A stretch of DNA of 64,000 bases from a virus (lineage: Duplodnaviria > Heunggongvirae > Uroviricota > Caudoviricetes). A program made the translations under genes and the position numbers. Below are positions 14,443 through 63,947 of this stretch, piece by piece; the stretch's first letter is position 1, and the number at the start of each line of letters is the position of its first letter. Below the pieces are notes generated by a model. That model was not told the origin of the DNA. It ran no database searches and saw nothing but the letters and a program-made list of their open reading frames with translations. The stretch lies in the IMG/VR virus record IMGVR_UViG_3300045988_157791; one strand, written 5' to 3'.

Positions 14443-14964
14443 ATGGTTAAAGACATCACCTACGGCATACCGGCTGAAGTCTGGCCGCGAGACTACGAAC
14501 ATGCTGAAAACATACTTATGTTCTGGCGGAAGAACAACATTCCTGTAAGAGTCACGCTTGAAGACGGTCAGGTGTTTTGCATGTACGTTCAGGGGACAAT
14601 GCCTTCCCGCAATAAGCTAGATTTATGCCCGCTTCCATATGATAAAGAAAATCGTATAAGACTCCCACTTGAGCGCATTAGCACAATTGAATCAGGTGTA
14701 ATCGATGGCATTGCTCGCGAGTTCAAAGGTAGGCTAACAATACATCCAGACTATGTTGACAATCAGCCATCACGCCGTGACTTTTTTGCGATATGTCGCA
14801 AGGCTTATCAAAACGACCAATCTATAAGGGTCTACATGGCAGACGGTCGTGAAATAGAAGGGGTGTCAAGAGGCGTTGATGCTTGTCAGGTCACTCTTAA
14901 GTTAGAAGACGGCAGAAAAATACTTGTTTTCTTCGATTGGGTTGAACGAATCCTTCCATTTTAA
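14443..14964 (+). CDS. hypothetical protein with internal duplicated small beta-rich motif
   Basis: 173 aa; IPVRVTLEDGQVF and VTLKLEDGRKILVF repeated segments (Rof/Sm-like pattern, weak); TATAAT at ~14409 upstream. Confidence 0.4.
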   Translation: MVKDITYGIPAEVWPRDYEHAENILMFWRKNNIPVRVTLEDGQVFCMYVQGTMPSRNKLDLCPLPYDKENRIRLPLERISTIESGVIDGIAREFKGRLTIHPDYVDNQPSRRDFFAICRKAYQNDQSIRVYMADGREIEGVSRGVDACQVTLKLEDGRKILVFFDWVERILPF

Positions 14965-16193: not shown

Positions 16194-16217
16194 AGCGCCC
16201 ACTATGGGCGCTTTTTT
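16194..16217 (+). terminator. intrinsic terminator (same hairpin as 15922)
   Basis: GCGCCCACTATGGGCGC + TTTTTT. Confidence 0.55.
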
Positions 16218-16240
16218 CGTTTCCAATACTTCCACAATAA

Positions 16241-16264
16241 CGCGCCATTGATGGCGCGTTTTTT
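16241..16264 (+). terminator. intrinsic terminator
   Basis: CGCGCCATTGATGGCGCG + TTTTTT. Confidence 0.5.
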
Positions 16265-16683
16265 ATTGTCTTTGACTCACTCCAACAACATAAAAATAAG
16301 CGCCAAAATAACGCCATAAACGCGCTTTTATATCCTTGCCAGTACATACCCATTACTTAACACATTAACGCGCTTAAAATGCGTTATATTGCGCTATAAC
16401 GTATGGCTAATCATTGGCTTTTAGTCTTGCTATGTGATCCGCGTTTATTTGTCGGCGCGGATCGGCATTTTGTGTTGTTTTGTATCCGCTCGCATATGAT
16501 TGCCACGTTGGGCAACGTGTACGCGCTTACAGTGATTTACCCACGGATTCACATAATCACATAGCGAAAGCTATCTGGATGGCCCAGGGGCTGAAACCCC
16601 CACCAGCGATACCCCAGCGCCGCTACGCAATTTCTGGCGCGATTCCGGGTTTCTCCCGCTCAGTTTTCTACATAAAGGCGAAT

Positions 16684-16805
16684 GCAGCCGTTTCCCGAAA
16701 AAATCCTGGCCGTTTCCCGTCGGCTCATGAATGCGTTCCTCGCCGTTTCTGAAAATTTCCCTGCGGCAGCTGGTGGCTATAGAGAAAGGGCCGTTTCTGG
16801 CCCTC
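16684..16805. repeat. direct-repeat array A of (G)CCGTTTC(C/T) motifs
   Basis: Four copies: CAGCCGTTTCCCGAAA, GGCCGTTTCCCGTCGG, CGCCGTTTCTGAAAA, GGGCCGTTTCTGG within ~120 bp of non-coding DNA. Confidence 0.5.
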
Positions 16806-16812
16806 TTCTCAG

Positions 16813-17295
16813 TTACACGCCATCAAGGATGTGGATGCGGTTGCTTGCGTATACATTCAGCATAAAGTTAGCGCAAAACAGTTTCCATGTGTCAACGCCA
16901 GCGGTATACGTAATGTTTTTGCATTTAATTGCATTGTTGGCGATCCGCATCCCCTGCGATACTGCTTCATCGTCGGAAAATTTGAACGACGATTGAGTTT
17001 TAATCCAGACAGAAATCTGCGTAGCGAACTCAATCAGCTTGGACTGGCAGAATCGCCCGGAGCGCACCGGAAAGACGAACGTTCCGAATCCAGAATTTAC
17101 CACATATGCTTTCTCAAATACCCGCGAGTAACGACGATTGCCAATGATGTTGCGTACAATAATGCATTTTTCTTGTTCTGACAGTTCTACCGTCTCATTG
17201 TGACGCCAGGCACCAAGTACTCGTTTTTCAATGTCAGAGAACGTTACAGCGATATTGCCATGTGCGGGTGCGTTTACAGTAGCGATAAAATTCAT
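16813..17295 (-). CDS. hypothetical protein
   Basis: 160 aa; preceded by conserved promoter/5'UTR block (GATAAT ... GAAAACAATTTGTT ... AAGGAA). Confidence 0.4.
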   Translation of the reverse strand: MNFIATVNAPAHGNIAVTFSDIEKRVLGAWRHNETVELSEQEKCIIVRNIIGNRRYSRVFEKAYVVNSGFGTFVFPVRSGRFCQSKLIEFATQISVWIKTQSSFKFSDDEAVSQGMRIANNAIKCKNITYTAGVDTWKLFCANFMLNVYASNRIHILDGV

Positions 17296-17499
17296 GATTA
17301 ATTCCTTATCGTAAATAACAAATTGTTTTCTTGTTGGCGTTAATTATCGTTGTACGAATAAGGCGTCAAAGTGGAAAGTTGCGGTAGCCGGACGGGAACA
17401 GGTGGGTTTGTCGGTTGCCTGGAGGTAAGAGGTTGGTGTTTTTAGCCTGAGGGAAACAGGATGGTCATTTAAGGCCACCAGCATTGGTGGCCTTAGTCT

Positions 17500-17781
17500 T
17501 TAGTGGAGCAGACCGATGTCGATGGTATCCCCTGAATCACCCACACGGATCATCAGCATGGCGAAGGCGTTTAGTGGATAACTGGCGTGCCATTCAGGGA
17601 AGCGGTCATCTCGCATGAAGTCGGCAATGTCGTAAACGCAGCCCTCAAAGTGGAAGAATCGCGTGCTTACCTGCTCGTCATATTCCACATGATCCATTTC
17701 TTGCTGTTCTGTTTCCGGCAAGTCCAGCCATGATTCAAGGAATACATTTTGTGCTTTAGGGGTAATGGTGAAATCAGTCAT
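17500..17781 (-). CDS. hypothetical acidic protein
   Basis: ORF track 17500..17913; internal ATG at 17781 has GAGG at 8 nt; upstream conserved block. Confidence 0.4.
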   Translation of the reverse strand: MTDFTITPKAQNVFLESWLDLPETEQQEMDHVEYDEQVSTRFFHFEGCVYDIADFMRDDRFPEWHASYPLNAFAMLMIRVGDSGDTIDIGLLH

Positions 17782-17970
17782 GAGCATATCCTCACTGCGT
17801 AAACATGTTGTTTTCTTGTTGGTGTAATTATCGCAGTGTAGATAAGGCATAAAAGAAGTTAATACAGGCTGAATACACAAGAAAGGTTCTGGAAGTTGAT
17901 AACCAGGTTTCAAACTAACCTTCGGTTATTAAAAGTCATTTAAGGCCACCAATGCTGGTGGCCTTAATAA

Positions 17971-18114
17971 TTATCGCCCGATTACGCTAAGGATCTTTTC
18001 CTCAACTGATTTGTTGTTGCGACTAAACTGCCTTGCGTATCTGATGACAGAAGAGGCGTTTTGCTTTCTGACCATCTCGGCTCTTTCCTTCAGGCGTTTC
18101 TTGAAATCGCCCAT
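17971..18114 (-). CDS. small ORF (47 aa), translationally coupled to upstream gene
   Basis: ATG 2 nt after stop of 18117..18491 gene (TAAATATGG); MGDFKKRLKERAEMVRKQ...; below ORF-track size cut-off. Confidence 0.25.
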   Translation of the reverse strand: MGDFKKRLKERAEMVRKQNASSVIRYARQFSRNNKSVEEKILSVIGR

Positions 18115-18116
18115 AT

Positions 18117-18491
18117 TTACCACCAGGCACGGAACGTCAGTCTATTATTGTGAAAGTCGTGGTTCTTAATCAGATCTTCCACAAGCTCTTTCAACTCCCC
18201 CACATCATGCCAGTAACCTTCATCGTACTCCTGACTGCCGAAGAAAAAACCTTCCCGGGTAGGCAAGTACTCTTCGCAATTACTTTCGTTTATGTGCATC
18301 AAATGAGCCTTCAGAAAACAAATGTCATTCATCGTTAATTCTAAAAGCTCACAATTTTCGACTTCACCTACGTTGCGCTCCATCCACCCAACGAGCGCAT
18401 TGAACTTACGGAAGTAAGCAACCTGCTTTCTGGATGCCTCGTTATTCAGATCGTTTTTAGGCTGCGTCTCGATATAGATATCAAGTCCCAT
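18117..18491 (-). CDS. hypothetical protein
   Basis: ORF track 18117..18533; ATG 18491 preceded by AAGGAAACC. Confidence 0.4.
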   Translation of the reverse strand: MGLDIYIETQPKNDLNNEASRKQVAYFRKFNALVGWMERNVGEVENCELLELTMNDICFLKAHLMHINESNCEEYLPTREGFFFGSQEYDEGYWHDVGELKELVEDLIKNHDFHNNRLTFRAWW

Positions 18492-18608
18492 GATGGTTTC
18501 CTTATTAAGTTGCTTCAGTGAAATCATTTTCACAAATCAGATAAGGCAGAAAACAGATTGTTATCGGGCATAAGAAAATGGCGCGGTTTACGCGCCATTC
18601 AAAGAGGA

Positions 18609-19004
18609 TTAAGCGAATACGCTTTCAGGGATTAAGGTGTCAGCAGGAATGCCGGAGGTAATGCGCAGGCCGTACTGACCAATCCAGGTAGTGTTGGTAT
18701 TCAGGCTGGAGGCGAATACGGTGTTAACCATATTCATCATGGTTTCAAACACCTCTTCATCAACCTGGCGGAAGTAGTTCTCGATTTTCAGCAGCAGCGG
18801 GTCAGTTGCATCGAAAATAGACTGGTATTGAGTCGCGTACTCGCCGCCGGAGGCATCACCTTTACGCACGATCGTACTGGCCTGGACTTCGGCACCAGTT
18901 TCGGTGTTGTACGTAACAACGGTGATTTTTGCCACATTCTTACCTTCGGCGGTTTCAGAGGCATAGTAAACATCAACTGTCAGTTTTTCGCGTTTAACGG
19001 TCAT
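18609..19004 (-). CDS. hypothetical protein
   Basis: ORF track 18609..19070; ATG 19004 (MTVKREKL) preceded by GGAGAG and a TTGTAA-17-TAGAAT promoter whose spacer holds the GTAAGTACATACTTAC palindrome. Confidence 0.4.
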   Translation of the reverse strand: MTVKREKLTVDVYYASETAEGKNVAKITVVTYNTETGAEVQASTIVRKGDASGGEYATQYQSIFDATDPLLLKIENYFRQVDEEVFETMMNMVNTVFASSLNTNTTWIGQYGLRITSGIPADTLIPESVFA

Positions 19005-19130
19005 TTCACTCTCCGTAGTGTATTGGTTATTTTTATATTCTATGATCGTAAGTATGTACTTACAATACAAAAAAGCCCCGTAAGGATGGCGGGGCTGTCG
19101 TACGGTCGACTAATTACCACTTGCACATTA

Positions 19131-19442
19131 TCAGGCTATTGCCATCACTGATGCTCTCTGAATCTCTTGCTGGGCCACGCGGTTAACTTCCATCAAAGCC
19201 AGTTCGAGCTGATGTTCCGGCCACATTCTTTGAAATGCCACCCAGCCTTTTCCACGCTGGCGACGAACATTCATTACATAACGAGTAAAGGTGTTTTTAT
19301 CGAAAGACACCGCTGTTTCACGGAATAGACGAATAGAGGTTCCATTGGCAACGATATCCAGCAAAGTTAATTGAGCAACCAGTGCAGGCTTCTCTTTTCT
19401 CTTCTGGTCTTTGTCCAGACCAAGAACCAATGATTTTTTCAT
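19131..19442 (-). CDS. hypothetical protein
   Basis: ORF track 19131..19472 (TTG); ATG 19442 with GGAG at 7 nt. Confidence 0.4.
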   Translation of the reverse strand: MKKSLVLGLDKDQKRKEKPALVAQLTLLDIVANGTSIRLFRETAVSFDKNTFTRYVMNVRRQRGKGWVAFQRMWPEHQLELALMEVNRVAQQEIQRASVMAIA

Positions 19443-19595
19443 CACAACTCCGTAAACAACTTGTTTTCTCAATGGCGTAAATAATACCAGTAAGAAAACG
19501 GCTACAAAGCATATTGATCAGGTGCATGAGCGATATGCAGGTTCTTCCCTGCGGCTATAGAGAAATTAAGCCAGCAAAGCTGGCTTTGGTTGGGG

Positions 19596-19925
19596 TTACT
19601 CGAATACTTCAAGAAACTCCTGAACGTCCCAATGCTGGACGAGGTGAAGATAGACCTTAGAAATCACGTCATTTTCGCTATCGCATGTGAAGTAGTACTT
19701 CTGGCTGCGGTTGTATGTGTCCACACAAAATTCGCTCATATCCATAAAGTCAGCATCTTCACCCATGTCGCAAATCATCAAAGCAGGTGCGTCATCACGA
19801 GTCATCAGCTCAAGCACCCACCGCGAATTGATCAGAGTGGAAGACCAACCTTCTAACTCATAAAACTGATCAAACTCTTTTTGAGTTAATTTCTTGATTT
19901 GGTTGATGTCGATATTTGCAAACAT
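19596..19925 (-). CDS. hypothetical acidic protein
   Basis: ORF track 19596..19946; ATG 19925; downstream hairpin terminator at ~19568-19590. Confidence 0.4.
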   Translation of the reverse strand: MFANIDINQIKKLTQKEFDQFYELEGWSSTLINSRWVLELMTRDDAPALMICDMGEDADFMDMSEFCVDTYNRSQKYYFTCDSENDVISKVYLHLVQHWDVQEFLEVFE

Positions 19926-20287
19926 AAAGCAACCCTTAAACAACATGTTTTCTTATTGGTGTTATTATCGCAATAACGCATAGGCGAAAAAGGATTTTAT
20001 TCCGGTGAATGTGGTTTTGGCAGTGAGTTTTCAGGTTCAGTACCGAGTACACTTTTTACATTATTCTGATTTAGTAGCCGAAGGTGGCTGGTGGGCAGAA
20101 TAATCATCTCCCCGAAAACCTACTGAAATCGATTGTGACCCGTTGGCTGTCTGGCACAATTACGCTGTAGCTGGGCATTCAGAGGGAATCCAGCGGTAAG
20201 TAAGTTCGCCTGCACGTGAGCGCCTCTCTTCTTCCCGCACATTACAGGTGGGTAGCCGCAACTCTCCCTCTCGCTATACCGGTACGC

Positions 20288-20425
20288 CGCCGTTCCTGAA
20301 CCGGCATCGAGCCTTTTCCCGAAATCCACACAGGCAACTCGACCGTTTCCCTGAAAACCTCCAGCCGTTCCCCGAAGGCAACCCAGCCGTTTCTGTAGCG
20401 GGATGCAGCCTTTTCCCTGTATGGA
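20288..20425. repeat. direct-repeat array B of (A)GCCGTTTCC motifs
   Basis: Six copies at ~22-30 bp spacing: CGCCGTTCCTGAA, AGCCTTTTCCCGAAA, GACCGTTTCCCTGAAAA, CAGCCGTTCCCCGAAGG, CAGCCGTTTCTGTAGCG, CAGCCTTTTCCCTGTATGG. Confidence 0.5.
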
Positions 20426-20579
20426 CCGAAGGCTGACCGTAGGGGTGTTACGGGGGATAAAATCAGGAGTTGAATAAATACGAAAAAGGAGGCGACACCC
20501 CTCCTTCCCTCCCAACTTATACATACCTGTCTTGTTCGCTATACATGTTGTGTTTTCTTCGTGTTTTATCTGTTTCAAC

Positions 20580-21400
20580 CTCTCTATAGGCGTTAATGCT
20601 CACTCCTTCCAGAACGTTCTATACGGCGACTATTTCTGTTGGTGAATTGGGTGTGTTGTTTTCCCTGTCGGTGTATGTGGTTTCGTTCGTTTTGCGATGG
20701 TTCTTCTATGGGGTGTTCTCGTCGTTTTGGTGATTGTTCTTCTCCGTGTATGGAGTAATGGCAGGTGGGCGATTCCTTTCGTTATTGTGTTTGAGTTGTT
20801 TGTCTGGAGTGCGTGAAGGGCTTTTGTAGTTATTCGTGTATTGGGTAATGGCGTTTCCCGTGATTGTTATGTTTCGTGTCTTTTGGGATTGAGAGAAACC
20901 TTGCGGTTACAGGCTTCGTTGGGGTTTCAGTGATTCTGATGTTTCTTCGCTGTTTGGGTAATGGCGTGTCGTGGGTATCGCGCGTATGAATGTTTTCGGA
21001 TTGCCTGTGAAAGTTAGGTTGGTTGTCCGGTAGCCTGGGAAGAAGAGGTGGGTCTTTTCGGTAGCCTGCCATAAAGAGGTTGGTTGTTTTTGGTAATGGC
21101 ATATGTGTTATTTAGTTGTTTTGTTATACCTGAAAATAAGTTGTTTATATGGTTATGTAACGCAACGGGAGCGATTTTGAGCGTGTGTTTTTGTTGGTAG
21201 TGTGTTGGGTCGTCTGTGGTGAAAATTGGACGCTGTGGCGCTGTCTGCTGCGTAGAGTTACGGGTATAAGAAGTGATGTGTGAAAACGTCAATTTTTTAG
21301 ACCAAATCGGGTGAAAGCGTTGACGTTTCGTTGATCTGTTATTTAGTTGTTTTCTTATTTGTATAAACAACCATAACCTATTGATATTTAATGATGTGAT
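20580..21400. repeat. GT-skewed non-coding tract with degenerate ~100 bp tandem units
   Basis: Plus strand almost devoid of C-runs; recurring ...GTGTATTGGGTAATGGCG... at ~20751, 20841, 20953, 21090; GTTATTTAGTTGTTTT repeated at 21108 and 21337. Confidence 0.5.
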
Positions 21401-21489
21401 TGCTGGTATGGGAGGGGAGTAGTGGCGATCAACGGATTCTTATAGAAAAGAATCAAATTGTGACCGCCATTATCAATGAGTTGCAACCG

Positions 21490-22433: not shown

Positions 22434-22742
22434 TTACCATTGCCAGCACTCTAGCCCTTCAACGACCGGTGCACCACAATCAAAATGTACAGAGTCAAAG
22501 CCTACATCAAGTACTTTCTGAATGTTCGCAATCGCGCCCTCGGATATACCATATCGACGCAACTCATCTTTCCAGTCATCGTCCTGTAACCCGGCGTGGA
22601 CAATGCAACCGTACTCAATTTGTGAAACCCAATCCAGCTCATTGCTTGCGATCATGAATCGGCGAGCATCTTCCTCTGATGTATGAGATGAGCTGATCAA
22701 TGCCACCTGGTAGGCTTGGGTAATGTTCAACATTTCAACCAC
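22434..22742 (-). CDS. hypothetical protein
   Basis: 102 aa; preceded by conserved block (GATAAT ... GAAAACAACTTGTTTT). Confidence 0.35.
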   Translation of the reverse strand: MVEMLNITQAYQVALISSSHTSEEDARRFMIASNELDWVSQIEYGCIVHAGLQDDDWKDELRRYGISEGAIANIQKVLDVGFDSVHFDCGAPVVEGLECWQW

Positions 22743-22839
22743 TCCAAAACAAGTTGTTTTCTTATGTGGTTTATTATCTCCATCAACAAAAGGCAGAAAA
22801 CAAATTGTTTTAGGTACTGTGTAAATCAGAAGGGATTGT

Positions 22840-22876
22840 GTCTATATGAAAATGCCCGGCGTGTTGCCGGGCATTG
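22840..22876 (-). terminator. intrinsic terminator downstream of metG
   Basis: GCCCGGCAACACGCCGGGC hairpin followed by ATTTTCAT on minus strand. Confidence 0.6.
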
Positions 22877-22894
22877 CGAAGAGAGGTTGTTTAA

Positions 22895-24928
22895 TTACTT
22901 AACCTGGTGGCCAGGTTTAGCACCAGCATCCGGGCTTAACAGGAAGATATCTTTCCCGCCGGGGCCAGCAGCCATCACCATGCCTTCAGAGATACCGAAG
23001 CGCATTTTACGTGGTGCCAGGTTAGCCACCATAATGGTGTGACGACCAATCAGTGCCTGCGGATCCGGGTAGGCAGAACGAATACCGGAGAAGACATTGC
23101 GTTTTTCACCGCCGAGATCCAGTGTCAGGCGCAGCAGTTTGTCAGAACCTTCAACAAACTCTGCGTTTTCGATCAGCGCTACGCGCAGGTCAACTTTGGC
23201 GAAGTCGTCAAAGGTGATGGTTTCCTGAATCGGATCATCTGCCAGTGGGCCAGTAACTGGCGCGGCAGCTGCTTTCACTTCTTCTTTAGACGCTTCCACC
23301 AGTGCTTCAACCTGCTTCATATCGATGCGGTTATACAGTGCCTTGAACGGATTTACTTTATGGCCCAGCAGCGGTTGCTGGATACCATCCCAGGTCAGTT
23401 CTGTATTCAGGAATGCTTCTGCACGTTCAGTCAGTTTCGGCAGTACCGGCTTCAGGTACGTCATCAGCACGCGGAACAGGTTAATGCCCATAGAGCAAAT
23501 CGCCTGCAGATCGGCATCGCGTCCTTCCTGCTTCGCCACCACCCACGGAGCCTGTTCATCGACATAGCGGTTAGCCAGGTCAGCCAGTGCCATGATTTCA
23601 CGGATAGCTTTACCAAATTCGCGGCTTTCCCACGCTTCACCAATCACTTCAGCGGCATCAGTGAAGGTTTTGTACAACTGCGGGTCAGCCAGCTCGCTTG
23701 CCAGCACACCGTCAAAACGCTTATTGATAAAGCCAGCGTTACGGGACGCCAGGTTAACCACTTTGTTCACGATATCGGCATTCACACGCTGAACGAAATC
23801 CTCCAGGTTGAGATCGATATCATCAATGCGCGAAGAGAGTTTCGCAGTGTAGTAGTAACGCAGGCTGTCAGCGTCAAAATGATTCAGCCAGGTGCTGGCT
23901 TTAATAAAGGTGCCGCGAGACTTGGACATCTTCGCGCCGTTCACCGTCACATAGCCATGAACAAACAGGTTGGTCGGCTTGCGGAAGTTGCTGCCTTCCA
24001 GCATGGCAGGCCAGAACAGGCTGTGGAAGTAAACGATATCTTTACCGATGAAGTGGTACAGCTCGGCGGTGGAGTCTTTCTTCCAGTATTCATCGAAGCT
24101 TACGCTGTCGCCGCGCTTGTCGCACAGATTCTTGAAAGAACCCATGTAGCCAATCGGTGCGTCCAGCCAGACGTAGAAATATTTGCCCGGCGCGTTCGGA
24201 ATTTCAAAACCGAAGTAAGGGGCGTCGCGGGAGATATCCCACTGTTGCAGGCCAGATTCAAACCACTCCTGCATTTTATTTGCCACCTGCTCCTGCAACG
24301 CACCGCTGCGGGTCCATGCCTGCAACATTTCGCTGAAAGAGGGCAGATCAAAGAAGAAGTGTTCAGAATCACGCATTACCGGCGTAGCACCAGAAACCAC
24401 CGATTTCGGTTCAATCAGTTCAGTCGGGCTGTAGGTCGCGCCGCAGACTTCACAGTTATCGCCGTATTGATCTGGCGCTTTACATTTCGGGCAGGTGCCT
24501 TTCACAAAACGGTCCGGCAGGAACATGCCTTTTTCCGGATCGTACAGCTGAGAGATGGTGCGGTTTTTAATAAAACCGTTTTCTTTCAGGCGAGAGTAGA
24601 TAAGTTCTGACAACTGGCGGTTCTCTTCGCTGTGCGTCGAGTGATAGTTGTCATAGCTGATGTTAAAGCCTGCGAAATCAGTCTGATGTTCCTGACTCAT
24701 TTCGCCAATCATCTGCTCCGGTGTGATACCAAGCTGCTGAGCTTTAAGCATGATCGGCGTGCCGTGGGCATCGTCGGCGCAGATGAAGTTGACCTCGTGG
24801 CCGCGCATTCGCTGGTAACGGACCCAGACATCAGCCTGGATGTGCTCCAGCATATGGCCGAGGTGGATTGAGCCGTTAGCGTACGGCAGCGCGCACGTCA
24901 CCAGAATTTTCTTCGCGACTTGGGTCAT
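22895..24928 (-). CDS. metG: methionine--tRNA ligase
   Basis: 677 aa from [26 protein letters not shown] (HIGH motif) ... KMSKS ... C-terminal tRNA-binding domain; near-identical to Escherichia MetG as recalled; ORF-track N-terminal 43 aa extension rejected. Confidence 0.95.
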
Positions 24929-25085
24929 AGTAGGCATTACTTCTTTGTAGTGAAAAGGGGCTTGATAGTAACAAAATGGCCTTATGTCTGCCATGTGATA
25001 ACAGCATTTCTCATAAATGATTAAATGTCGTAGCTGGAGTACACTACAAGGCGACAATTGCGCAAATTAAAATAAAGGAGACGGG

Positions 25086-26186
25086 ATGAGCGAGTCCAAA
25101 TCGCCGGATGCCCTGAGAGCAATGGTAGCCGGTACGCTGGCTAATTTTCAGCACCCAACCCTGAAACACAACCTGACTACGCTTAAAGCGTTACACCATG
25201 TTGCGTTGATGGATGACACACTGCATGTCGAACTAATCATGCCTTTCGTGTGGAATAAGCCTTTTGAAGACCTGAAAGAGCAATGTAGTGGTGATCTGCT
25301 CCGTATCACTGGCGCAAAGGCTATTGACTGGAAGCTGTCGTACAACATTGCCACGCTTAAGCGCGTCAAAAACCAACCAGGCATTAATGGCGTTAAGAAC
25401 ATTATCGCCGTCAGCTCAGGCAAGGGCGGCGTAGGTAAATCCTCCACGGCGGTAAATCTGGCACTGGCGTTGGCTGCTGAAGGTGCGAAAGTTGGTATTT
25501 TGGATGCCGATATCTATGGTCCATCAATTCCAACCATGCTGGGCGCGGAAAACCAACGTCCAACCTCACCGGACGGTACTCACATGGCACCTATCATGTC
25601 TCATGGCCTGGCAACCAACTCTATTGGTTATCTGGTCACCGACGACAATGCAATGGTGTGGCGTGGACCGATGGCCAGCAAGGCGCTGATGCAGATGTTG
25701 CAGGAAACTCTATGGCCTGATCTGGACTATCTCGTTCTCGATATGCCGCCGGGCACTGGTGATATTCAGTTGACGCTGGCGCAGAACATTCCTGTAACTG
25801 GTGCGGTTGTGGTAACTACGCCGCAAGACATCGCGCTGATCGATGCGAAGAAAGGCATTGTGATGTTCGAAAAAGTCGAAGTGCCGGTACTGGGTATCGT
25901 CGAAAACATGAGTGTGCATATTTGCAGTAACTGCGGTCATCACGAGCCAATTTTTGGCACCGGTGGCGCACAGAAACTGGCCGAGAAATACAACACGCAG
26001 TTGTTAGGCCAAATGCCACTTCATATCTCTCTTCGTGAAGATCTGGATAACGGAACACCAACCGTTATTAGTCGTCCAGATAGCGAATTTACGGCTATTT
26101 ATCGTGACCTCGCAGATCGCGTTGCTGCCCAAATGTATTGGCAAGGTGAAGTAATACCTGGCGAAATCGCATTCCGCGCAGTGTGA
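25086..26186 (+). CDS. apbC: Mrp/ApbC Fe-S cluster carrier ATPase
   Basis: P-loop SGKGGVGKS, CxxC (CSNCGH); divergent from metG as in the enterobacterial chromosome. Confidence 0.9.
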   Translation: MSESKSPDALRAMVAGTLANFQHPTLKHNLTTLKALHHVALMDDTLHVELIMPFVWNKPFEDLKEQCSGDLLRITGAKAIDWKLSYNIATLKRVKNQPGINGVKNIIAVSSGKGGVGKSSTAVNLALALAAEGAKVGILDADIYGPSIPTMLGAENQRPTSPDGTHMAPIMSHGLATNSIGYLVTDDNAMVWRGPMASKALMQMLQETLWPDLDYLVLDMPPGTGDIQLTLAQNIPVTGAVVVTTPQDIALIDAKKGIVMFEKVEVPVLGIVENMSVHICSNCGHHEPIFGTGGAQKLAEKYNTQLLGQMPLHISLREDLDNGTPTVISRPDSEFTAIYRDLADRVAAQMYWQGEVIPGEIAFRAV

Positions 26187-30875: not shown

Positions 30876-32561
30876 TCATTTAACGCGTTTGAAAACGTAT
30901 ACGCTGACTGTGATCCCTGTGTCTTCAAACTCGTTGGTAAACGACTTCCCTCTGGCATAAACGTAATTATCCATCGTCATCCAGTCCAGTATTGGCGCAG
31001 TGCCCGGCAATACTGCTACAAGACGCCCGCCGACTTTCAGATGCCCCAGCGCAGCCAGCGTGTGCTCTCTATGACGACCAAGCGAGTACGGCGGGTTCAT
31101 AACGATTTTGTCGAACTGATAACCTACGTTGTCCTCAGACCACTTTATGAAGTCGCAGCAAATCGTGTTCGTATACCCTTTTCCGCGCAGGATATCAGCG
31201 AAGAGAGGTGCGATTTCTATGCAGGTAACATCTTCCAGATCGGCGTTGATATAGGCCAGAAGATCCCCACGTCCGGCTTGAGGCTCCAGCAGCTTCTCAC
31301 CAGACTTCAATTCAGTGGCTCTGGCAACGTACTCAGCAATCAAGCGTGGGGTAGGGTAGAACTGGTGTGATTTTGTATCCGGTATTAATCCGGTAGCCAC
31401 AATCGTATTTAGCGTATGGCCGATCTCATACGGGAACTGCCAGTGCTTTTTCTCCTGCACGCCGCCAATGAAGCTCAGTGTGCGCTCAAGCTCTTCCACC
31501 TGCGACTTCTGGAGAGCTGAATCAGAGAAGTACCATACGCCTTTGTCTTTGCTTAATCGCCCGTCACGAAGCGCAGTGCGAACCGGCACGGAGATCGTCT
31601 TCTGGATTAACCCGAACTGCTTTGGTGCCCGTGTTTTTGGCGCGGTGCGACATGGCGCGGGGATTGCAGCAGGCATACTGTAAGCCAGCACCTCATTCAA
31701 CTTCCAGGCCACGTCAGGATGTATTTCAAAGTGAACGTTGCCGTTCTTGAACATCTTCACGCGCATTAGATTTCCATCGACGTTCATCCAGTCACCGGTC
31801 TGGCAGTCGTTTGCCCGATACGCAGCTGATAGCACCTCAGCAGTGCGGTTGATGGTAATAAATTCTTTGTGCGCGAAGAAATGAAGCAAGACACGCAGAT
31901 CGTCGATATAGTCCTCTTTGCGATAGTTCACACTAACGCTGTCCCGCCAGAAATCAGAAATGCAGTCAGCGATTATCAGACGTTCGCTGAAACCGTTTGT
32001 CTTATTTGTCTTGTGCGCAGGACTCAGCGCCTTAAACAAGCCATACACGCGCTCAGAGAGATATTTGTGCCTGTCATTCAGCAAATTAAGCATCGTGGGT
32101 ATGACCGTTTCTGCTTTGAACTCCGGTACACCAACGAACTCTTTAACCTTCATCTGGTAGCCGGTTCTGTCAGTTTTGATGACTTCCTGTTTGCCCTCTA
32201 TAAACTGCTCGCGCCACTCATCTCGACGGGAAGCTGGCATGATCAGCAAAACGTTAGTCATGTCCGTGACCTTCCTCCAGTACTCGGCCCAAATATTCTG
32301 TTTCACCCATTCCAGATCGACTTTATCCAACCAACCTCGATTTAAACGCGAGCGATCTTCATCTGGTCGATGGTTTAGTCTCAGCAGGCGATTAATCATG
32401 TTGTGGCGTTCGTCGCCATAAACGAAGTCGTGTACCTGATACATGAAGGCGATCTCTTTCTCGCACTCGGCCACAATTTCGTGGATGACGTTCATTTCCT
32501 GCCGATAGTCGATAGCAGTGTTTGAGTTGGCATCGTCGATGATGGAAAGGGCTGTATTCAT
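30876..32561 (-). CDS. DNA methyltransferase (NPPY motif) with ~400 aa N-terminal domain of unknown function
   Basis: C-terminal region has AdoMet motif I-like EPQAGRGDL and motif IV VMNPPYS; N-terminal two-thirds unassigned. Confidence 0.55.
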   Translation of the reverse strand: MNTALSIIDDANSNTAIDYRQEMNVIHEIVAECEKEIAFMYQVHDFVYGDERHNMINRLLRLNHRPDEDRSRLNRGWLDKVDLEWVKQNIWAEYWRKVTDMTNVLLIMPASRRDEWREQFIEGKQEVIKTDRTGYQMKVKEFVGVPEFKAETVIPTMLNLLNDRHKYLSERVYGLFKALSPAHKTNKTNGFSERLIIADCISDFWRDSVSVNYRKEDYIDDLRVLLHFFAHKEFITINRTAEVLSAAYRANDCQTGDWMNVDGNLMRVKMFKNGNVHFEIHPDVAWKLNEVLAYSMPAAIPAPCRTAPKTRAPKQFGLIQKTISVPVRTALRDGRLSKDKGVWYFSDSALQKSQVEELERTLSFIGGVQEKKHWQFPYEIGHTLNTIVATGLIPDTKSHQFYPTPRLIAEYVARATELKSGEKLLEPQAGRGDLLAYINADLEDVTCIEIAPLFADILRGKGYTNTICCDFIKWSEDNVGYQFDKIVMNPPYSLGRHREHTLAALGHLKVGGRLVAVLPGTAPILDWMTMDNYVYARGKSFTNEFEDTGITVSVYVFKRVK

Positions 32562-53073: not shown

Positions 53074-53160
53074 AATCGTTTTTTCAGTAGTTATTGGCCG
53101 ATGCTACGATAACTCATTAGGCATACCTTAATCTGCATTTGCCTGTTTTACTTATCCCAG

Positions 53161-53810
53161 TTATCCACTGGATAGATCCAAATAAGAGATCCCAAGTAAG
53201 ATCAAATAGAAGATCCAAAGAGATCCCCGATCGCCTCTAGCCGTTGCGGTTACTGGTCTGAAAGGGTGTTGCCATCCACTATGGAGAGCAAAGAAACCTC
53301 TGTAGAGAGCTGAATAACCGCTATGAAGAGTAAAACAACCACTCTGGAGAGCTGTATATATCCACTGTAGAGAGTAGAGCACATTGTCTTTTATGGATAA
53401 CTTAATGACTTAATTCTTCATTAACATACTGATATACATAGATATATTTTAAACTCTACTCTTAGTCATGATTCTTATGTCCTTAAATATCCACAGAAGA
53501 GTAGAGTTACCTGTTCTTGAAATCCTCTGATTTTTATCCACAGGCCCGATCCAGTAATTCAGATCACAAAGAGAACCAAAGAGACCCATAAAGACCCAAT
53601 AAGATCCCCGCCCACCTCAAACCGTTGTGCCATCTGCCTTCAGACATGATCGATATCCACTATAGAGAGCGAATAATCCACTATAGGGAGCAAAGCAACC
53701 ACTATAGAGAGGAGAAAAACCACTATAGACGGTAGGATAACCGCTGTGATGAGTGCTACTATCCACTGTAATCAGCAAAGGCCACCAAAGCCGTCGAATA
53801 ACAAGAGACA
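53161..53810 (+). promoter_or_regulatory. plasmid-type replication origin: two GATC clusters, DnaA-box-like sites, two sets of 21-bp-phased iterons
   Basis: Six GATC in 53176-53232 and more at 53548-53651; TTATCCACA at 53534; iterons (A/T)NCCACT(A/G)T(A/G)GAGAG at 53275,53296,53317,53338,53360 and 53655,53676,53698,53719,53740,53761. Confidence 0.7.
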
Positions 53811-63127: not shown

Positions 63128-63456
63128 TGATGCCCGCCAATTGGCGGGCATCTGTTCTCTGTAAAGGTGTCTGGCATCGTCTGGTTCGTTAACGTTTACT
63201 AAACCAATGGTGACAAAAATTAGTTATCTTTGAAAAATAAAGGTTGCATGAAAAGAAGGGGTATGCGTTAATAGCATCGTTGGTTTGCAAGACAGACCTT
63301 ATGTAAGCAGTTTTAGTAAAGCAGTCTCAGTTCAGTGTTATCTTCTGATTTCCCTTCTTCGTGAGTCTCCTCCTTAAGTGCCTAAGTAAGTCCCAATCTA
63401 TACAGATCAAATTCTCGCCGCACTATGTGGCTCACAAAATTAAGAAGGTAATATCT

Positions 63457-63672
63457 ATGTCTAATAAAATGACTGGTTTAGTAAAATGGTTTAACTCTGA
63501 TAAAGGCTTTGGCTTTATTTCTCCTGCTGATGGCAGTAAAGATGTTTTTGTACATTTTTCGGCAATTCAGAGTAATAATTTCCGCACTTTGGAAGAAGGC
63601 CAGCAGGTCGAATTCTCTATCGAGAATGGGGCTAAAGGCCCAGCAGCAGCAAATGTCGTTGCTCTAAGCTGA
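63457..63672 (+). CDS. CspA-family cold-shock protein
   Basis: [38 protein letters not shown] (RNP1/RNP2); ORF-track start 63361 rejected in favour of ATG 63457 with AAGAAGG RBS. Confidence 0.85.
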
Positions 63673-63947
63673 TTCAACGCTGATGATCCTCATTTCTACA
63701 ATAACGAAGACGGTGTAAGCCTGAGTGGATAGATTTGCAGGATTGTACAAGTTGAATAAATTAGCATGGTAAGGCCATGCTAATTAAATCGACACAACGG
63801 CCAGTTTATTCCATAAAAGTGAATTGCCCATTGTGGCGAAATGCGGGGTTGCCGCATGAATAGTCAAAGGCAGAAGCTAACTGCCGGCATGGCAAAACAA
63901 AGTGCGTAAGAGGAGTGACTTCCTCAACAAGCGCCATAATTCTTTAT

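Follow-up and report, generated by a model that had tools for sequence, protein, structure and literature searches.

What is a cluster of short, regularly spaced direct repeats doing in a gene-free stretch of phage-plasmid DNA? The repeats in question, here called array B, occupy positions 20289 to 20416 of a 64,000-nucleotide stretch of the IMG/VR virus record IMGVR_UViG_3300045988_157791 (Caudoviricetes), and this whole stretch is referred to below as the window. The window belongs to an SSU5-type phage-plasmid and is collinear with pLF82 (window position = record position - 54347), with a gene order that runs from the head genes through the early region to the RepA origin (53.1-53.8 kb) and repA. 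The reading that we favor, though with somewhat less than even confidence, is that array B is an orphan iteron-type array of protein-binding sites within a cis-acting, origin-like locus used in the phage mode of the element; both the binder and the replication role are proposals, drawn from sequence conservation and from analogy with known arrays. In the searchable literature on SSU5-type phage-plasmids, no description of the array B locus was found, and the phage-mode origin, the control of the early genes and the cis-acting sites are likewise undescribed there; a preprint on heteroresistance and a phage-plasmid deals with a different family.

Array B is a cluster of six helically phased repeats

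The repeat motif was defined as a 9-mer, which in its degenerate form reads NCC(G/T)TT(T/C)C(C/T). An initial annotation of the window had reported six copies at a spacing of about 25 bp, oriented like those of a second array, array A. The six copies are real and lie on one strand, and the four copies that make up array A, 3.6 kb away, are indeed found on that same strand. The spacing had to be revised: start-to-start distances in array B measured 22, 31, 22, 22 and 22 bp, corresponding to two or three turns of the helix. The two arrays are composed as follows.

20289..20416, plus strand: array B, six units with 9-mer cores
20289-20297: array B unit 1, GCCGTTCCT
20311-20319: array B unit 2, GCCTTTTCC
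20342-20350: array B unit 3, ACCGTTTCC
20364-20372: array B unit 4, GCCGTTCCC
20386-20394: array B unit 5, GCCGTTTCT
20408-20416: array B unit 6, GCCTTTTCC
16687..16798, plus strand: array A, four units, at 16687 and 16709 (GCCGTTTCC) and at 16742 and 16790 (GCCGTTTCT)

The array A unit A2 reads GCCGTTTCCCGTCGGC and carries a GCCG-N8-CGGC dyad, and the last unit of this array lies inside the terminator hairpin of gene 16813..17295. Clustering of the motif is far beyond chance. Over the whole 108-kb plasmid, the degenerate form occurs 16 times on the array strand, compared with a Markov expectation of 16.6, and 10 of the 16 copies fall within the two arrays; the largest cluster within 140 bp holds six copies, compared with one or two in 60 Markov simulations. 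A stricter 10-mer with one mismatch allowed gave 13 matches in the window where 3.7 were expected.

The motif core and its register are conserved across lineages

Over 19900-21450, the window shares 97.9% identity with Escherichia phage Cyrano, which is plasmid pLF82 of E. coli LF82; with three further phage-plasmids from E. coli the identity is 91-97%, and with Salmonella phage SSU5 it is about 72%. The 671-bp array B region was found in 717 plasmid records (Klebsiella 310, Escherichia 224, Enterobacter 90, Salmonella 48, and others) and had matches in 12 phage records; about 45 more loci came from scanning IMG/VR for the pattern. Five lineages are distinguishable, with 57-75% identity among them over the conserved unit to which array B belongs. 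The window lineage and the lineage that includes SSU5, pHCM2 and relatives from Enterobacter and Citrobacter both have six units in the identical 22/31/22/22/22 register. There are three or four array B units at 22 bp in the Klebsiella lineage, two or three in pSTM_Phi, and three or four at 22 bp in the fifth lineage, which is represented by IMG/VR contigs only (L026, L035 and L060).

Between the window and SSU5, the eight-base cores of array B agree at 45 of 48 positions (94%), as opposed to 55 of 93 (59%) in the spacers, and the 141-bp array is free of insertions and deletions, against three to four gap events per 100 bp immediately to its right. In p09EL50 and PhiR41_1, exactly one 22-bp unit of the array has been deleted. 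Array A is at least as well conserved as array B, with a spacing of 22 and then 33-34 bp in all lineages sampled. As judged from these alignments, array B is shown to be under purifying selection on both the motif core and the exact register, and the strict conservation of a core together with an integral-turn register points to an array of sites bound cooperatively at the DNA level.

Array B is non-coding and has no conserved RNA fold

Two long open reading frames (ORFs) are called mechanically across the repeats, one at 20120..20578 (minus strand, 152 amino acids) and one at 20248..20436 (plus strand). Both had been suspected of being artefacts of the repeats, unless 20120..20578 proved to be conserved as a protein. 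Among the relatives, its frame is not conserved: the stop-free stretch over array B differs in strand, frame and length from lineage to lineage, and in p09EL50 (92% identical) the deletion of the 22-bp unit breaks the ORF, and no frame over the array exceeds 81 codons. Nor does the NCBI Prokaryotic Genome Annotation Pipeline (PGAP) place a coding sequence there, and the suspicion of artefact is thus borne out. A re-annotation of Cyrano lists two hypothetical ORFs in the gap, CYRAN_103 and CYRAN_104 (the latter equivalent to ORF 20120..20578), and the published transcriptomes of lysogens (PMC9928086, S1 table) show floor-level expression of CYRAN_103 and low expression of CYRAN_104. Bulk RNA sequencing gave a low signal over 20120-20524, similar to that of the downstream operon, and none over 21014-21370.

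At the RNA level, the array B region has no Rfam match at the gathering threshold or at E<=5 and no tRNA, and RNAalifold applied to 20 sequences of less than 96% mutual identity found no conserved fold relative to column shuffles (z -0.47 for the plus strand and -0.59 for the minus strand). The array B repeats are non-coding, and the "hypothetical proteins" annotated over the region ought to be dropped from the annotation.

Array B is the left module of a gene-free unit

In pLF82, the interval 19925-21481 (window numbering) contains no coding sequence according to PGAP, and the counterpart gap of 1.4-2.0 kb is free of coding sequences in SSU5-family plasmids from Salmonella, Klebsiella, Enterobacter, Citrobacter and E. 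coli. Among the parts of pLF82 whose annotation was listed, the unit containing array B is the largest gene-free stretch. Array B forms the left module of this conserved non-coding unit of 1.2-1.5 kb, and is followed by a conserved block and then by a GT-skewed tract. The initial annotation had proposed that array and tract may form one locus, and the alignments agree, since 20256-21483 is a single block in all lineages despite variation of the genes on either side. In SSU5 and pHCM2, for example, an inserted plus-strand gene separates array B from the operon on its left, and array B is still joined to the tract; in PhiR41_1 (L002 6054-6425, opposite window 19953-19946) and CMS-2020a (CP054387), an insertion of about 370 bp separates the first small gene of that operon from the region left of array B, and both are short of one 22-bp array unit. 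The parts of the unit, and the nearby Chi sites, are listed below.

20425..20525, right of array B: conserved block with near-invariant GACCGnAGGG, GTTACGGGGGAT, TTGAATnnnTACG, GCGAnnCCCCTC and CTTATA (TATAAG on the minus strand)
20483..20509, minus strand: terminator-like hairpin and T-run, in the window lineage only, its pairing being lost in the SSU5/pHCM2 lineage
20600..21420, plus strand: GT-skewed non-coding tract, with islands conserved across the five lineages
20753, 20843, 20956 and 21091, in the GT tract: four copies of GGGTAATGGC-type motifs
21028..21089, plus strand: tandem pair of 31-bp units CGGTAGCCTG...GAGGTnGGT, about 610 bp right of array B
21103-21127 and 21334-21358, in the GT tract: two conserved AT-rich 25-mers, 92% identical
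21424-21468, right edge of the unit: invariant nested palindrome GGCGATCA..GATTCTT-ATAGAA-AAGAATC..TGACCGCC
21471-21483, and 21374-21386 on the minus strand: consensus sites for integration host factor (IHF), flanking the palindrome
20087..20094, plus strand: Chi site GCTGGTGG, about 203 bp left of array B, its offset conserved in most lineages
16600-16607 (minus strand) and 16769-16776 (plus strand): Chi sites 88 bp left and about 25 bp right of array A, conserved in most lineages

The tract had been called a GT-skewed tandem-repeat tract. The skew is evident from its composition over 900 bp (T 359, G 262, A 156, C 123), but the tandem repeats are not: Tandem Repeats Finder reported no tandem array in 20.0-21.5 kb at a score of at least 30, and the tract consists of dispersed short motif families instead of head-to-tail copies. 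The possibility that it is a decayed copy of the PHROG 1641 gene was rejected, there being no residual similarity. A paralogous pair of CGGTAGCC(T/G)G...GAGGTnGGT units lies at 17382-17443, about 600 bp right of array A, and aligns with the pair at 21028-21091 over 64 nucleotides with 77% identity (E 4e-7). With paired 31-bp units some 600 bp to the right of each CCGTTTCC array, loci A and B share a two-module plan.

The TATAAG at 20517-20522 (minus strand) is conserved, but lacks a convincing -35 element, and the promoter scan returned a single sigma-70-like site, at 20023-19994 on the minus strand. Three of the five IHF-consensus sites in the window are in or beside the unit (21374 and 21471, with 19887 just outside). 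As a separate observation, the Chi sequence GCTGGTGG occurs 17 times in the 64-kb window, counting both strands, where 1.5 copies are expected.

Comparable arrays are origin-type iterons

An exact-pattern scan for three cores at a 22-bp period across 2.9 million viral contigs identified 53 loci. Those outside the SSU5 family that were inspected all turned out to be origin-type iteron arrays. Five of them (L019, L033, L043, L059 and L061) lie inside genes for O-like initiators (PHROG 9773, E 5e-35 to 3e-79), where the iterons sit beside three GATC-containing repeats; one further inspected locus is inside another, uncharacterised ORF, and one is beside DnaA boxes. Homologues of the O-like initiators are found in Providencia phage PSTRCR_117lys, coliphage mEp390 and a Klebsiella prophage.

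The O-type iteron consists of GCCGTTTCCATTCGGC and a 6-bp spacer. Of the 16 positions of GCCGTTTCCATTCGGC, 14 are shared by unit A2 (GCCGTTTCCCGTCGGC, elsewhere among the lineages ...CCCTTCGG) and 15 by unit B4 of the lineage known from IMG/VR contigs only, AGCCGTTTCCCTTCGGCAATGCT, which matches in the spacer as well. The likeness to O-type iterons thus extends beyond the bases used in the search. The core and the 22-bp period of the O-type dyad, GCCGTTTCC(A/C)(T/G)TCGGC, are present in all units, and the full dyad only in A2 and B4-type units. Taken together, the identity of all comparable arrays as origin iterons and the lack of a coding or RNA-fold signal argue that array B is an array of protein sites acting at the DNA level.

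Several details of the O-like family were recorded along the way. In the initiator genes that contain the origin, the order is three GATC repeats, TATAGAGA, and then four or five GCCGTTTCCATTCGGC iterons at 22 bp, which are translated as ..NGNG.. linkers. This iteron-in-gene subfamily is also present in Klebsiella phage ST405-OXA48phi1.2 (L071), and the O-related protein of coliphage mEp390 is without GCCGTTTCCATTCGGC iterons.

A proposed origin-like, phage-mode locus as the best explanation

Iteron origins are expected to have at least three direct repeats of about 17-22 bp in helical register, and array B has six. We propose that these six units would be helically phased sites on double-stranded DNA for a sequence-specific protein, and that arrays A and B would be parts of one conserved, gene-free, cis-acting locus of SSU5-family phage-plasmids, with array A serving as a second, distant iteron cluster. 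The binder would be encoded by the phage-plasmid, or possibly by the host, and would coat the in-phase sites cooperatively on one face of the helix. The resulting nucleoprotein complex could then act on the adjacent AT-rich 25-mers, IHF-type sites, palindrome and GT-rich strand. In this way, the locus might serve as a second, lytic (phage-mode) origin, or as an origin-like site for assembly or copy control, distinct from the RepA origin at 53 kb. As for the role in replication, incompatibility or titration that the initial annotation had suggested testing with a plasmid carrying the region, we infer a cis-acting role of this kind from conservation and analogy.

Three considerations make this the best of the readings weighed. 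The first is the coupling of array B to a motif-rich, gene-free unit. The second is the company of IHF-type sites, AT-rich repeats and a palindrome; the AT-rich 25-mers and two IHF-consensus sites are found 0.7-1.1 kb from array B. The third is that the array can be dispensed with by Yersinia pestis pMT1, which persists only as a plasmid. In pMT1 (L073, NZ_CP009904.1 66686-85195), the block from the helicase to the FljA-like gene is kept, and past a copy of IS1541 the sequence jumps directly to SbcCD-like genes; both arrays and the operon of small genes have been lost, as has the whole early and nucleotide-metabolism region. The arrays are therefore dispensable for replication and inheritance in the plasmid mode, although pMT1 may use another partition system.

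A number of results weigh against an origin-like role, and the main weakness is the absence of an identifiable initiator. No cognate initiator was found in cis, the one Rep protein seen being RepA, whose iterons differ. Searching the whole plasmid with O-like proteins by tblastn returned only the trivial repeat translation "NGNG"; PHROG and Pfam scans of 30 plasmid proteins near the arrays, the helicase and the primase revealed no O-, Rep- or DnaD-like domain; and hhalign comparison of two candidate families with the O-like N-domain gave a probability below 1%. There is no DnaA box in 19.9-21.5 kb, and the AT-rich elements, at 0.7-1 kb from array B, are farther away than in classical iteron origins. 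Plasmid-wide signals do not mark the locus either: the cumulative GC skew runs monotonically and reaches its extremes nowhere but at the RepA origin, and no switch in polarity is seen among the plasmid's 25 Chi sites. Most SSU5 units correspond to the left half-site only, with the O-type dyad in some of them. Finally, the most divergent relative, whose FljA-like protein is 36% identical, has the motif at both loci with the 22-bp register loosened.

Two candidates were tried and set aside. The PHROG 1641 protein, whose gene always lies beside array A, was considered as the DNA binder, and its model (pLDDT, the predicted local distance difference test score, of 89) had no fold match and no sequence match in the PDB. 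Array B was also compared with the iterons of the RepA origin, which are 21 bp long (CCACTATAGAGAGC), unrelated, and located at 53.1-53.8 kb. The RepA origin itself is P1-like and occupies 53130-53800, with repA starting at about 53818. It has two similar modules, each with a DnaA box, GATC-rich short repeats and five or six 21-bp iterons (CCACTATAGAGAGC). A 9-mer of these iterons, CTATAGAGA, is present in single copies at 16777, 19555 and 20581 (minus strand).

Phage-plasmids of the SSU5 type abound in clinical Klebsiella, E. coli, Enterobacter and Salmonella, and they carry resistance genes (PMC9600943). The 1.5-kb gene-free unit with an orphan iteron array at its left edge is a candidate for their missing cis element, and it offers a handle for curing, incompatibility and copy-number work.

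Alternative explanations

The alternative that survives best, though we consider it doubtful, is that array B is an upstream regulatory region, 270-470 bp from the operon promoters, and that a single DNA-binding regulator occupying both arrays silences or insulates a six-gene early operon by looping or by acting as a roadblock. The features concerned are the following.

16813..19946, minus strand: six small genes of unassigned function (PHROG 1641, 1845, 7971, 2473, 5125 and 7645), bracketed by arrays A and B
17329, 17814, 19467, 19951, 22760, 22811, 34220, 34949 and 56911, minus strand: starts of a recurrent motif, GCGATAAT..CCAAyAAG-AAAACAAnTTGTTTA(A/C)GG

In every lineage, it is the same small-gene operon that lies between the two co-oriented arrays, with array A exactly at its convergent end and one unit in the terminator; the helical phasing favors cooperative binding on one face; and the sigma-70-like site at 20023-19994 (minus strand) lies, together with the recurrent early-promoter motif, between array B and the first gene. 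On the other side of the balance, the gene inserted in SSU5 and pHCM2 separates array B from the operon, and array B stays with the GT tract. The candidate regulator was not found, and lysogens express the operon weakly instead of keeping it silent. Moreover, the small genes already have a palindromic operator-like motif of their own: the recurrent motif directly precedes the ribosome-binding site in many small early genes, including most of the six, and looks like a shared promoter with either a palindromic operator or an element of the 5' untranslated region (5'UTR). The GT tract holds degenerate copies of it, at 21103-21127 and 21334-21358. Left of array A, the convergent intergenic region (16200-16440) contains several GCGC-rich hairpin terminators and repeated AACGCGC/TAACGC motifs; its weak, sub-threshold Rfam matches to small RNAs are probably terminator artefacts.

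Distinctly unlikely, in our estimation, is a role at the RNA level, in which the minus-strand repeats, (C/A)GGGAAACGGCUG, would be located in the leader (array B) and the trailer (array A) of the early operon transcript and would be bound by a translational repressor of the FljA family, controlling the early genes. The gene for the proposed repressor is near the arrays.

14443..14964, plus strand: FljA-family gene, a full-length homologue (PF03614, E 1e-80) annotated as "transcriptional regulator", 1.7 kb from array A

This gene belongs to the core set of the SSU5 supergroup; it is present in 831 plasmids, 341 of them from Klebsiella, and its host distribution is nearly that of array B. Klebsiella is a genus that is not known to have flagella. 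The AlphaFold model of the FljA-like protein (pLDDT 82) has two tandem Hfq-like folds (Foldseek probability 1.0, target TM-score 0.7-0.84). A passage in PMC2652032, citing Yamamoto and Kutsukake 2006, states that FljA blocks translation of fliC mRNA, and the tandem Hfq-like model fits that reported action. Also counted in favor of this reading is the low bulk RNA signal over 20120-20524, like that of the operon. In addition, the E. coli fliC 5'UTR and the minus strand of A2 have a 12-mer in common, TGAGCCGACGGG, which is the longest match of the UTR in the plasmid. This match is a lead, not evidence: about 0.85 such 12-mers are expected plasmid-wide by chance, 11-mers are as numerous as expected, the comparison was post hoc, and the extended match is confined to A2. 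Neither strand has a conserved RNA structure (z about -0.5), the exact 22/31-bp register is better explained by helical phasing of DNA, and pMT1 retains the fljA-like gene without the arrays.

A wider form of this idea, which we rate as more speculative still, is that the arrays, and perhaps also the recurrent AAAACAAnTTGTTTAAGG early-gene leaders, are native targets of the FljA-family tandem-Hfq protein, acting as a core post-transcriptional regulator. Most FljA-family members in the protein database are on contigs of about 105-115 kb, and a chromosomal "phase-1 flagellin repressor" from Atlantibacter hermannii (P0084) is about 40% identical to the FljA-like protein; from such sequence records, the family looks to be mainly phage-plasmid-borne. 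If the idea were true, the Salmonella phase-variation repressor FljA would be a domesticated phage-plasmid regulator, and the phased multi-copy repeats would be an RNA (or DNA) loading platform for a protein of this family.

A function in handling virion DNA, as a T5 iss-like untranslated repeat region or a cos/pac-related site acting in entry or packaging, strikes us as quite improbable. T5-like phages have an untranslated region of 1.2-1.66 kb with many direct and inverted repeats, which is conserved above the adjoining variable small early ORFs (bioRxiv 10.1101/866236). The SSU5 unit is similar in anatomy, being a long, conserved, untranslated, multi-repeat region beside variable early genes, and has an invariant palindrome and IHF-type sites at its right end. 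The Chi sites near the arrays would guard DNA from RecBCD entering at a nearby end, and the unit would be about 12% into the genome if that end adjoins the terminase genes (~7.3 kb). However, the unit is without the ordered DnaA box series of T5 iss, the terminase genes are about 14 kb distant, and the direct repeats look like the iterons of replication origins and unlike terminase R sites.

Centromeres of types Ib and II typically have arrays of direct repeats, and array B might accordingly be imagined as a partition centromere bound by the ParA-partner protein or by ParB-N-domain proteins, two genes for which lie at about 9.3-10.6 kb. We find this very improbable. Array B is not adjacent to, or evidently served by, a par operon: about 40 kb separate it from the ParA-like gene and its 117-amino-acid partner, beside which there is no cluster of the motif, and pMT1 is stably inherited without the arrays, though perhaps by means of another par system. 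The small ParA-like ATPase (PHROG 164) and its partner are encoded outside the window (L069 11386-12413 = pLF82 31385-32412) and probably constitute the type Ib partition system of the plasmid. The two ParB-N-domain proteins are encoded with an ABC-type ATPase at about 8.6-10.6 kb, near the terminase genes.

It is equally hard to credit that the arrays are orphan O-type iterons in a narrower sense, either titrating or recruiting the O-like initiator of a co-resident lambdoid phage or persisting as the decaying relic of a captured lambdoid origin. Some units are nearly identical to O-type iterons, spacer bases included, and the hosts overlap (Klebsiella prophage ST405-OXA48phi1.2, the Providencia phage and mEp390 all have the O-like family). 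Yet this iteron-type origin was found in just 2 of 5426 complete E. coli genomes, which makes a lambdoid decoy or hijack role unlikely, and decay would not have spared the cores and the register across five lineages.

Weakest of all, and almost certainly wrong, is the notion that a genuine protein with repeats is the product of ORF 20120..20578 (or 20248..20436): there is an open frame of 152 codons and CYRAN_104 is annotated as a hypothetical protein, but the open stretch differs in frame and extent in every lineage, the 22-bp deletion breaks the frames of p09EL50 and PhiR41_1, PGAP annotates nothing there in any RefSeq relative, and the RNA signal over the ORF is close to the floor.

Other features of the plasmid

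Two further observations concern other parts of the window. Host-type metG (methionine-tRNA ligase) and apbC/mrp genes are arranged divergently at about 22720-26010. A full-length Rfam cspA thermoregulator (185.7 bits) is found at 63279-63697 on the plus strand, and its counterpart in pLF82 is just upstream of a cspG-like cold-shock gene.

Comparison with known systems

The FljA-fliC operator offers one parallel. Its known target is a single mRNA leader, whereas the SSU5 arrays are phased and multi-copy, and the likeness is statistically weak and limited to one unit, A2. The T5 region 3/iss, like the SSU5 unit, is a gene-free stretch of 1.2-1.7 kb in a large siphovirus, with several families of direct and inverted repeats beside less conserved small early genes; it differs in having eight ordered DnaA boxes, where the SSU5 unit has none, and in lying within a terminal repeat.

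Bipartite arrangements with distant repeat clusters are known from phage P4 (ori/crr) and from oriP of Epstein-Barr virus (EBV), with its family of repeats and dyad symmetry element. As with arrays A and B, two clusters of the same motif are placed kilobases apart in the same orientation, although in P4 and EBV oriP the binder (P4 alpha and EBNA1, respectively) is established. Plasmid iteron origins and copy-control arrays, such as P1 incC/incA, RepFIB, R6K and pSC101, are a further parallel. These systems, including the plasmid's own RepA origin, share with array B direct repeats of about 21-22 bp, in clusters of four to six, with more than one cluster per replicon. The RepA iterons differ in that they adjoin repA, DnaA boxes and GATC repeats, neighbors that array B does not have.

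Close counterparts are also the lambdoid O-type iterons. In these, the array is inside the initiator gene, next to three GATC repeats, and every unit is dyadic; the SSU5 arrays, by contrast, are intergenic and without an initiator gene, include one 31-bp spacing and come as a pair. In both systems, direct copies (four or five in O-type arrays) with the core GCCGTTTCC follow one another at a 22-bp period with one polarity per array, and the O-type iterons and some SSU5 units have the GCCG-N8-CGGC dyad in common, with 14-15 of 16 bases identical.

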